The notes: generated from the sequence alone by a model not told the origin. A stretch of 41,432 nucleotides of DNA from a virus (UHGV-1461890); one strand, 5' to 3'. Positions 21,901 to 24,900 are shown, counted from the first letter of the stretch. Translations and numbers: made by a program.

Positions 21901-24900
21901 TGATATTACGGAGGCTCGTCAGATTGCTAAGATGGAAAATAGCACTCCTTCGGATAAGGCGATGGCTAAGAAGTATGGCGTAATGTATGGAGGCTATAAA
22001 GCCATGCAAAATGCAGCCAATAACTATCTTAGATTATGTGCCGAGAGAAGTATCTCACCTAAATTCTCACACGAAAACGCTAACTTTACTACTGAGGCTA
22101 ACTATTGGAAATTGCTCATTGACCGAAAGATGATTGACAACGTCACAGGCGAGGTTATTGAACAACAGGCAGTTAAACCTATATTTGACCAAGGTGAAGT
22201 GCTTAGAATCCTTAATGATGAGCTGGAGCGTTACCCTTCAGTTAAAGCTGACCAAGATTATGCTACTCGCAAGGTTACCGAGAACTTCCTTTCAGGCAAT
22301 ATAAAGGGTGGCATGTCAGCCGAGGCTATTGCTAAAGCCATGAAAAAGTCTGTAGACAATATTGCTAAGGTTAATATTCTTGCTTCGATGGGAGATTCAA
22401 AACTTTCTGACAGAGACTCAGAAGGCAATACCCTTTCTAAAGAACAACAGGAGTTTTTCAAGGATTCAAAGGTTAGGGATGAGAAGGGTAATCTCAAAAT
22501 TATGTATCATGGTACATCAAAAGGTGGGCATACTGTTTTTGATACCTACGGAAGCAATTATGGTTTGTTTGGTACAGGTTCATACTTTACCGATAACCGA
22601 GATATTGCCGAGTCTTATACTAAAAAGGGTAAAGGTAATAATCAACAAGTATATGATACATACTTAAATATCACTAATCCTATTGATATGGATGCTCAAG
22701 CAGATGTAAGCAAGTGGGAGAAACAATTTCCAGATGCTGATTTTTCTAATTGCACCACAAATGAAGAGTGTTATCGTGCTATGGAAGAATGGCTTGAGGA
22801 TGAAATGCTTCCTAAATGGGAAGCAGCAGAGATTGCTATTGATGGTCTACAAGAAATGGGATATGACGGTGTTACTCATATTGGCGGTGGTAGAGTAAAC
22901 ACCGATAGCACCAGACATCGTGTATACATTGCATTTGACTCTAACCAAATCAAAGAAACCACCAACACCAATCCCACATCCGACCCTGACATTCGCTATA
23001 GTGAAAGAGATGCCATCGAATCTGAAAATAAGATACTCGACCTTGAAAGTCAAATATCTGAAATTGAAGAGCAGTTGTCAGAGGACATCTTTGACGAAAT
23101 TCCTGATGACGAGCGCAAGAAGATGAACAATCAGTTGTGGAAACTCCGTAACGAGTTGCAAAAACTCGAAAAGGCTGAAAGAGAAGCAACGGTTAAAACC
23201 TCACTTTCAGAGATTAGAGACAACCTTGACAAGTACAGATATATTGACCTGAGAAGCCTTGCTGAAGGCTTAGGTTGGGAAGAGTATGCGGATTTATCAA
23301 AGACTCAACTTGCCAACGCTTTGAGAGAAAGCCTTAACGAAATTGAGCAGGAATGGAAAGAAGATGAAACATCTGATTTTAATTCTGCTAAAGACGGAAT
23401 GTGGATAAGACCTATATCCGAAGAGGAAAGCAATAAAGTGATAAAGGTTAAATTCCAAGACCGAGATGCTGATACCACCGAGAACATTGAAAAGATAAAT
23501 AAGCAACTTGCCAAAGAAAACTTAAAACTCATTGAAGATGTTAAGTATCTGAAGGAACTTGTTAAGCTTCAGGGCAAAGAGACTCATGGTAAGGTGCTAA
23601 AGAAATCTACCGTTGAATTAGTGGCTAAAAGGTTGATGACTTATGTAAGTGCAAGGGGTAATACATCTGAGCTTGTAGGTCACCTGACCAATGTATATAA
23701 CTACATAATTCAGGGTGAGGATGTTTCTTGGGAAGGTATACAGGAAAAGGCTGAGGCTGCTGCTGATTGGTTGATGCAAAACGAACACCACAAACCTGTT
23801 CGTGACGATGTAGCAAACGAAATACTGCACTATCTTCGCACAACAGGCATCTCGTTTGACTCAGGCCAAAAACAAGAAGCGGCATATCGATATGACAGTT
23901 TTAACAATTTCCGTAAAAAGAATATGGGTCGCTTAAAAATCACAAATGATGGCCTACCACTCGATATGGCATGGCAGGAACTTGCTTCAATGTATCCCGG
24001 ATACTTTGACCCAGAAGTTAATTCCAATGACCAACCTCTTGTGTTAATGGATATAATTGACGGTTTGCAAAACACCTATGAGTTAGACGATTATCATTAT
24101 TATTCTGACGAAATGATTAAACAGGACCTTCTGATGAAAATATACGAAGGTTATTGGGATGTATCTGCTCTTCACACCGTTGCTGATGCAAAGCAAAAGG
24201 AAATCAATCTCCTGAAAGCTAAACATAGAGAAAGTATGGATTCCTTGAGGCAGACTCATGCTGAAGCCGATGCTAAGCTCAGACAGGAGCATAAGGATAA
24301 AATTTCTCAGCTTAGAAGTCAGTATAGAGAGCGAGAAGAGAAAAAGGTGCAGAAAGTAGCTGAGTATTATCAGAAGTCTCGTAAAGAGGCGGTTGATAGG
24401 GTAAAGGAATCTCGTGAAAAAAGAGATGCGATTACCAAACTTCAGAGGCTTGTTCTTGATACTGCTAAGTGGGTATCTTACCCTGCTAAAGATGCGGTTA
24501 AATGTCCTGACATTATCAAAGTTCCTTATGCAGAATTTTTAGAGAGTATAGACCTATCTTCTAAGAGATTACTAAGCGGTGGTGAGCCTACTCAGAATGA
24601 CCTTAGAGTAGCAAGTGCTATGGATAGTTTAGCTAAGGCTATTGAGCAGAAGTTAGGCACACAGAGACCTGATACCGATACGGAAACTGTTCTTGACACA
24701 GGCTATCTTGACTTGCCTGTACACTTTGTTGAAAATCTCAAAGAGTTAGCCGAATCCCTTAAAAAACGAATGGCAACAGATGGTCACATAGTAAACTCTA
24801 TGACATCTACTGAAATTAGGGACCTTACAAAGTTTATAAGAACTTTAAATCACTCCATTAAGGAAATGAGTACCCTATATGCTAACATGAGATTTGCAAA

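Follow-up and report, generated by a model that had tools for sequence, protein, structure and literature searches.

What does an ADP-ribosyltransferase (ART) do in the middle of a giant phage protein? The question is raised by the virus UHGV-1461890, known here from one stretch of DNA of 41,432 nucleotides (hereafter the window, from whose first letter all coordinates are counted). In this window a diphtheria-toxin-like ART signature had been recognized, correctly and from the sequence alone, at nucleotides (nt) 22484-22920, inside a very large gene, and the same original prediction proposed that an ART in a virion protein would ADP-ribosylate a host target at injection. We consider it nearly certain that this segment belongs to ART-PolyVal and that its active site is intact; the domain is a typical member of the Pfam family PF18760 and not a new sort of thing. 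For its function we favor a reading in which the giant protein is packaged in the virion and ejected into the cell, and its ART modifies a host macromolecule right after infection, and to this whole chain of events we assign a probability of about 0.65.

The gene in question occupies 15917-27265 on the plus strand and is an open reading frame (ORF) of 3782 codons that runs as a single uninterrupted frame, encodes a multi-domain "polyvalent" protein of ~426 kDa and contains all the peptides named in the original prediction. PF18760 (ART-PolyVal, "ADP-ribosyltransferase in polyvalent proteins") matches amino acids (aa) 2188-2354 of this protein, or nt 22478-22978, with an E-value of 1.8e-21 (77.8 bits) when the entire 3782-aa protein is scored and of 6.2e-24 (85.8 bits) for an isolated 200-aa segment, the curated gathering cutoff of the family being 31.2 bits. 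The alignment takes in positions 1-139 of the 140 in the profile. The signature is real and far beyond chance; the interval first proposed for it (aa ~2190-2334) was only slightly short at its 3′ end. Weaker signals for DUF3990 and for the PARP catalytic domain (PF00644, 13.7 bits vs. a threshold of 26.7 bits) fall at the same place, below threshold. PF18760 is the sole Pfam family detected across the whole giant protein, in which a search run with all filters off found no second ART copy. ART-PolyVal is the Tox-ART-HYD2 or "N4-ART" clade of the H-Y-[E/D] ADP-ribosyltransferases, and ARTs are reported to be the most common protein-modifying enzyme domain in the polyvalent proteins of phages and plasmids (PMC5512222).

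Conservation of the domain was assessed in 168 near-full-length copies, aligned from the 149 best cluster representatives of an exhaustive phmmer search. The Pfam domain is preceded by an N-terminal lead-in, DSEGNTLSKEQQEFFKDSKVRDE (22415-22477, plus strand), which is kept across the homologues that we collected and aligned separately (alignment A1). This lead-in (DSEGN..SKEQQEFFKDSKVRDE) begins near nt 22415, and two of its residues, F2181 and S2184, are conserved in 86 and 95% of copies. The peptide KIMYHGTSKGG begins at ~nt 22496 and holds, in its YHGT motif on strand 1, the predicted NAD-binding histidine, His2198 (22508-22510; 99% conserved). Further on, GTGSYFTDNRDIAESY, read in the frame of the giant ORF, provides two tyrosines: Tyr2223 in the GSYFT motif of strand 2 (22583-22585; tyrosine in 93% of copies and aromatic in 99%) and Tyr2234 in the AESY motif (22616-22618; 96%). 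The codons of these three residues were compared with the sequence by hand. The last strand carries a Q2344-I-K2346 motif (22946-22954), whose glutamine and lysine are each 99% conserved.

The original prediction could not place a catalytic glutamate, and none was to be found because ART-PolyVal uses aspartate. The predicted catalytic acid is Asp2317, in the GYDGV motif at 22865-22867, within the interval first proposed; this position is aspartate in 98% of copies and invariant in A1, and the glycine that follows it (Gly2318) is conserved in 99%. In an AlphaFold2 model built on A1, Asp2317 directly precedes a predicted beta-strand, GVTHI (model residues 149-153), so that an acidic residue does stand at the strand where one was expected, and His2198, Tyr2223 and Asp2317 lie on or beside model strands 27-31, 53-56 and 149-153. 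We take this position to be that of Glu148 of diphtheria toxin and Glu988 of PARP1. Asp2341, in the motif AFD, was considered as an alternative acid and rejected, being conserved in only 36% of copies. The same configuration has been described for the ARTs of polyvalent proteins, with H in strand 1, Y in strand 2 and D in strand 5, and these were grouped with Tox-ART-HYD2 (Iyer et al., 2017; PMC5512222). Aspartate also serves as the catalytic acid of AcrIF11, a diphtheria-toxin-like phage ART in which the D115A substitution abolishes activity (PMC8120803; PMC12421852).

The model itself is a confident ART fold, with a mean predicted local distance difference test score of 88.8 and a predicted template modeling score of 0.85. 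Among solved enzymes, structure comparison placed the model nearest to tankyrase-1 and tankyrase-2 (score 6.9), followed by PARP4 (6.8), PARP1 (6.5), AcrIF11 (6.5), diphtheria toxin (6.0 and 5.4), Tpt1 (5.5), MbcT (5.5) and exotoxin A (5.1), and Foldseek agreed. Searches of PDB sequences with the ART segment or its profile returned only an insignificant tankyrase alignment and noise; going by the model, kinship with solved ARTs is visible only at the level of the fold. The likeness to diphtheria toxin that had drawn attention to the locus holds at the motifs, where MYHGT aligns with SYHGT and GSYFTDN...Y with GFYSTDN...Y, but the alignment is insignificant when taken alone (hhalign E 0.004, probability 8.5%, with a toxin sequence verified as 1dtp_A); it is the fold that establishes the relationship. 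Profile-sequence alignment pairs His2198 with diphtheria toxin H21, Tyr2223 with Y54 and Tyr2234 with Y65, the two tyrosines being 11 residues apart in both proteins; in the tankyrase-2 alignment His2198 falls on the HGS motif and Tyr2223 on the tyrosine of the GIYFA motif. Within the fold, aa 2258-2313 (22688-22855) form an acidic insert of 56 residues, modeled as three helices, with an isoelectric point (pI) of 4.05; the insert varies in length or is absent among A1 homologues. The computed pI of the whole domain is 4.6.

The ART family is very large and its carriers are variable. Counting representatives as clusters at 50% identity, the exhaustive phmmer search retrieved 5829 at E ≤ 1e-3, 2284 at E ≤ 1e-10 and 414 at E ≤ 1e-30. 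Of the top 150, most are 2400-5240 aa long; they have between one and five ART copies detected with confidence, and as many as nine matched stretches apiece. Several of them, including P0122, P0124 and P0187, are collinear with the giant protein at 25-38% identity, with a Gly-rich region, an HExxH module, in some cases the module that precedes the ART here, the ART and a C-terminal module, and a 2811-aa ORF from a sheep-colon Clostridia metagenome-assembled genome (MAG) has a matching module order. Among species-representative genomes, ART relatives 33-43% identical occur in Clostridia, Bacilli, Eubacteriales and Bacteroidales MAGs, mostly in frames of more than 2000 codons. Other relatives depart from this plan. 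P0044 has three ART copies, and in P0074 the HExxH module is joined almost directly to the C-terminal module. In the related human faecal phage MT835607.1, whose portal and major head protein are 49 and 45% identical to those encoded here, the equivalent position in the structural module is taken by a 2685-aa ORF (13404-21461, plus strand) that lacks an ART and shares only an 89-residue similarity with the giant protein. The giant gene is thus highly mosaic between relatives, and the ART is optional cargo of giant proteins; such variable presence and copy number is the modular pattern that defines polyvalent proteins. One further relative, a 325-aa ORF near the end of a bacterial contig (P0003, at 262-1239 of L002; GCA_965341565.1, CBDQYM010000069.1), has an ART 58-68% identical to the one here. 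The similarity ends just past the GYDG motif, and downstream of the ORF lie housekeeping genes, smpB among them; either the remnant of a prophage or a break in the assembly could account for this.

Relatives of the giant gene as a whole were harder to find. The giant ORF had no megablast match among GenBank phages; tblastn of the N-terminal 1200 aa, of the middle of the protein (aa 1400-2130) and of the C-terminal 1263 aa returned nothing or one unannotated faecal fragment; and a scan of IMG/VR with the C-terminal module yielded no confirmed relative. PHROG annotation around the ART-bearing giant ORFs of two bacterial MAG loci was uninformative.

How might such a domain reach a host target? 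The giant gene lies in a co-directional late operon, between the tail genes and the tail fibre gene, and a gene placed among late virion genes, or in a conjugation locus, is characteristic of polyvalent proteins and implies their delivery with the DNA. The closest solved structure to the ART model is gp27 of cyanophage A4 (PDB 9K3A chain B), at 14% identity. Cryo-electron microscopy placed gp27, together with gp26, in the outer layer of a pentameric pre-ejectosome within the capsid (PMC12002296). hhalign of the ART profile aligned aa 1403-1583 of gp27 (E 7e-5, probability 63%), with the motifs LYHGT, GSGTYFS and GVDAL retained, and gp27 has a similarly placed but longer segment than the acidic insert between its early ART motifs and its Asp motif. 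A Pfam search of gp27 did not recognize ART-PolyVal in it, and the A4 paper mentions no ADP-ribosylation, does not call gp27 an ART and describes no catalytic role for it (PMC12002296). This gp27, encoded by Anabaena phage A-4L (L001, 6120-11270, minus strand), thus has a divergent ART-PolyVal-like domain, at aa ~1403-1600, with its His, Tyr and Asp motifs kept. The gp27 structure gives direct evidence that an ART-like domain related to this one is carried inside the capsid of a podovirus within a protein that is ejected, which strengthens, and does not prove, the case that the giant protein is packaged as well.

On the reading that we favor, the giant protein would be synthesized late along with the structural proteins, be packaged in the capsid within an internal core or ejection apparatus, and be ejected into the cell along with the DNA. 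It may be processed by the zincin-like peptidase module predicted within it, which would free the modules from one another. The ART would bind nicotinamide adenine dinucleotide (NAD+), with His2198, Tyr2223 and Tyr2234 holding the nicotinamide-ribose and Asp2317 acting as the catalytic acid, and would transfer a single ADP-ribose, making it a mono- rather than a poly-ADP-ribosylating enzyme, to a host macromolecule that is most likely a protein. The consequence could be host takeover, or a defense disarmed before any phage gene is expressed; for this alternative outcome AcrIF11, with its inactivation of a defense complex, offers a model. The late-operon position of the gene and the conserved H-Y-Y-D site support the proposal that a host target would be ADP-ribosylated at injection.

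Several points weigh against this reading. Our literature search found no biochemical study of any ART-PolyVal member, and the activity, product and target proposed for the ART are drawn from homology, just as incorporation of the 3782-aa protein into virions is something that we infer. The HExxH module has no Pfam match, and a fold search did not confirm a peptidase fold for it. Profile comparison detected no homology of the C-terminal module to A4 gp27 or to a 1672-aa protein of the Bacillus phage Pascal. Finally, the ART is dispensable for virion function, given that the giant ORF of MT835607.1 does without it.

An alternative that we regard as unlikely is that the domain is an active NAD-using enzyme of another kind, which ADP-ribosylates DNA, RNA or a small molecule, as do DarT, Tpt1/KptA and Arr, or hydrolyzes NAD+. 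The nearest solved enzymes, however, are the protein-modifying PARPs, AcrIF11 and diphtheria toxin, and the H-Y-Y-acid layout is of the protein-ART type; Tpt1 has an H-H-h site, and the sites of RES toxins are based on R. A domain pI of 4.6 would be unusual in a nucleic-acid binder, and this acidity weakly favors a protein target over nucleic acid.

Quite improbable, in our estimate, is that the ART fold has been retained chiefly as a building block for the core inside the capsid or for the ejectosome and plays no enzymatic role after ejection. What speaks for such a block is gp27 itself, a scaffold-like pre-ejectosome component to which its authors ascribe no catalysis. Yet the H, Y, Y and D are conserved in 93-99% of copies that are otherwise only 40-70% identical, which points to selection on catalysis and not on the fold alone, and the ART copy number ranges from zero to at least five in otherwise collinear giant proteins, which fits optional cargo.

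A third possibility, that the domain serves outside the infection cycle as a toxin or lysogenic-conversion factor, directed at competing bacteria or a eukaryotic host, strikes us as very improbable. Bacterial polymorphic toxins share the HYD2 family, for which a possible role as toxin or virulence factor has been proposed (PMC9503650), and a serine integrase and CI-like repressors show the phage to be temperate. Against this, the domain sits mid-protein in a 3782-aa product of the late structural operon, with no secretion signal, adjacent immunity gene or separate promoter context. Lysogenic-conversion genes would be expected elsewhere and on their own, usually near the attachment site or the lysis end. 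That the motifs arose by chance in a large low-complexity protein that holds no ART, as the insignificant diphtheria toxin comparison and the sub-threshold PARP score might suggest, is refuted by the PF18760 E-value, the 2284 homologues at E ≤ 1e-10 and the confident ART-fold model.

Besides the ART, which is certain, the giant protein has a second, predicted enzymatic module (HExxH + Glu) and at least three further conserved modules. A Gly/Ala-rich, mildly hydrophobic region (aa ~430-640, 17204-17836; 28% Gly+Ala) is conserved and collinear in related giant proteins. The predicted zincin-like metallopeptidase module (aa ~1039-1280, 19031-19756) carries its HExxH motif at 19238-19252 (H1108, E1109, H1112) and a downstream Glu1166 at 19412-19414, and both the motif and Glu1166 are invariant among 25 homologues of the module, which in other proteins is joined to ART-PolyVal, LPD3, MuF_C and PF18814. 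Directly upstream of the ART lies a conserved "middle" module of ~600 aa (aa ~1536-2130, 20522-22306), which precedes the ART in ~22 of the 149 representative relatives. It has no Pfam match and no tblastn match in phages or a plasmid collection, and contains cysteines in the stretches LCRKR and ACALCYVE. At the end of the ART module a DIRYS linker motif (aa 2358-2362, 22988-23002) recurs at the C-terminal edge of the homologues' ART copies. The C-terminal module (aa ~2509-3782, 23441-27262) matches phrog_22978 with 617 bits over aa 2520-3594, and its homologues are up to 84% identical.

The Gly-rich region, and the BppU_N domain of the neighboring tail fibre, prompted us to consider a tape-measure protein; we rejected this, as no family of tail tube, sheath or tape-measure proteins turned up and as the head genes resemble those of Pagevirus, whose portal is annotated as "podovirus type." A fused ejectosome was also considered and could not be shown, the C-terminal module being without homology to gp27 or to the 1672-aa Pascal protein. 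A bolder extension, which seems to us rather unlikely, is that the ART and the middle module upstream of it form a two-part effector in which the module selects the host target, be it a defense complex, as for AcrIF11, or something other than a protein, and that the 426-kDa protein is a single-chain equivalent of the multi-protein podovirus ejectosome seen in A4, with an enzyme built into the DNA-delivery machine. Two ORFs with TTG starts overlap the giant gene, one of 101 aa in another frame (22362-22667, plus strand) and one of 147 aa (20696-21139, minus strand); the unbroken, conserved frame of the giant gene makes it almost certain that neither is a real gene.

The genomic surroundings are those of a temperate phage. 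PHROGs matches identify, all on the plus strand, the small (3398-4021) and large (4014-5480) terminase subunits, the portal (5482-7485), the major head protein (8927-9949), a protein matching phrog_511, "internal virion protein" (10692-12413), and a tail protein (13142-14698). An ORF of ~390 aa follows (14720-15901, plus strand), and the giant ORF starts 16 nt past it and ends 52 nt ahead of the tail fibre gene (27317-29203, plus strand; PHROGs and Pfam), which encodes a BppU_N domain, typical of lactococcal siphophage baseplates, and a short collagen-like repeat. The ~390-aa ORF is 48% identical over 175 aa to the product of 12292-13392 in MT835607.1 (L003), beside that phage's giant gene; two other loci (L007 and L013) have similarly sized ORFs before their giant ORFs, without detectable similarity to it. 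Downstream of the tail fibre gene, a 129-aa ORF (30303-30692, plus strand) has a weak match to the carbohydrate-binding family CBM_5_12, and an endolysin gene lies at 31183-31893 (plus strand; PHROGs). A lysogeny and replication module spans 32111-41014, with a large serine integrase (32111-33607, minus strand), two CI-like repressors (34441-34866 and 35204-35626, minus strand), a RecE-like exonuclease, RecT, SSB, a DNA methyltransferase and a DnaD-like helicase loader.

Bacillus megaterium phages of the genus Pagevirus (Pascal, Pony, Palmer, Pavlov and Pookie) have major head proteins 38-39% identical to the one encoded here; in the Pascal record the portal is annotated "podovirus type" and the 1672-aa protein stands at the end of the structural module. 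We regard it as a podovirus-like phage of a gut bacterium. Overall, it stands closest to unannotated contigs of human faecal phages, whose portals are 42-54% identical. The DnaD-like loader and the closest relatives of the ART point to a Firmicute as the probable host, and the 41.4-kb window may be the whole genome.

Part of what this locus offers was already known: the family is in Pfam and was described computationally in 2017 with the same architecture and genomic context, and our finding agrees with that published prediction and opens no new category. New here are the placement of the predicted catalytic Asp, the modeled fold, the module map of the carrier, the temperate and podovirus-like nature of the phage and the link to a solved ejection protein, which gives a related domain its first experimental structure within a capsid. 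With thousands of ART relatives found, many of them in gut Clostridia, Bacilli and Bacteroidales, the locus is a clean single-copy example in a compact ~41-kb temperate phage, with defined predicted catalytic residues to mutate. Identifying the target would reveal what such phages shut down or reprogram within seconds of infecting a cell.

Among known systems, the domain does not belong to the PARP catalytic domain family by score, nor to the diphtheria toxin and exotoxin A families: Diphtheria_C and Exotox-A_cataly gave no match at E ≤ 10, and Asp stands in place of the catalytic Glu. The giant protein moreover lacks the translocation, receptor or PARP regulatory domains of those proteins. 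AcrIF11 (PDB 6KYF) has no sequence relationship to it and an H-F-H-D site, and is a small, separately expressed early protein and not virion cargo. T4 Alt is packaged in the head and injected with the DNA, and as infection begins it ADP-ribosylates host proteins that include RNA polymerase (PMC5512222). The analogy is functional only, as Alt is a small stand-alone myovirus protein of the R-S-E, Alt/VIP2 clade; the Arg/Ser-x-Ser/Glu site shared by Alt, ModA and ModB is replaced here by H-Y-Y-D, and there is no ADPrib_exo_Tox-type Pfam match. In A4 gp27 the second Tyr is not conserved, and its remaining parts have no detectable homology to the giant protein. Compared with other polyvalent proteins, the giant protein is without an N4-like RNA polymerase or any other recognizable Pfam domain. 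With the published ART-PolyVal proteins (PMC5512222), by contrast, it shares the full profile match, the H-Y-D site, the giant multi-domain format and a gene among late virion genes, as well as an accompanying predicted HExxH metallopeptidase module, the hub domain of polyvalent proteins. Nothing essential differs; what this member adds is the 56-residue acidic helical insert and the ~600-aa module that precedes the ART.

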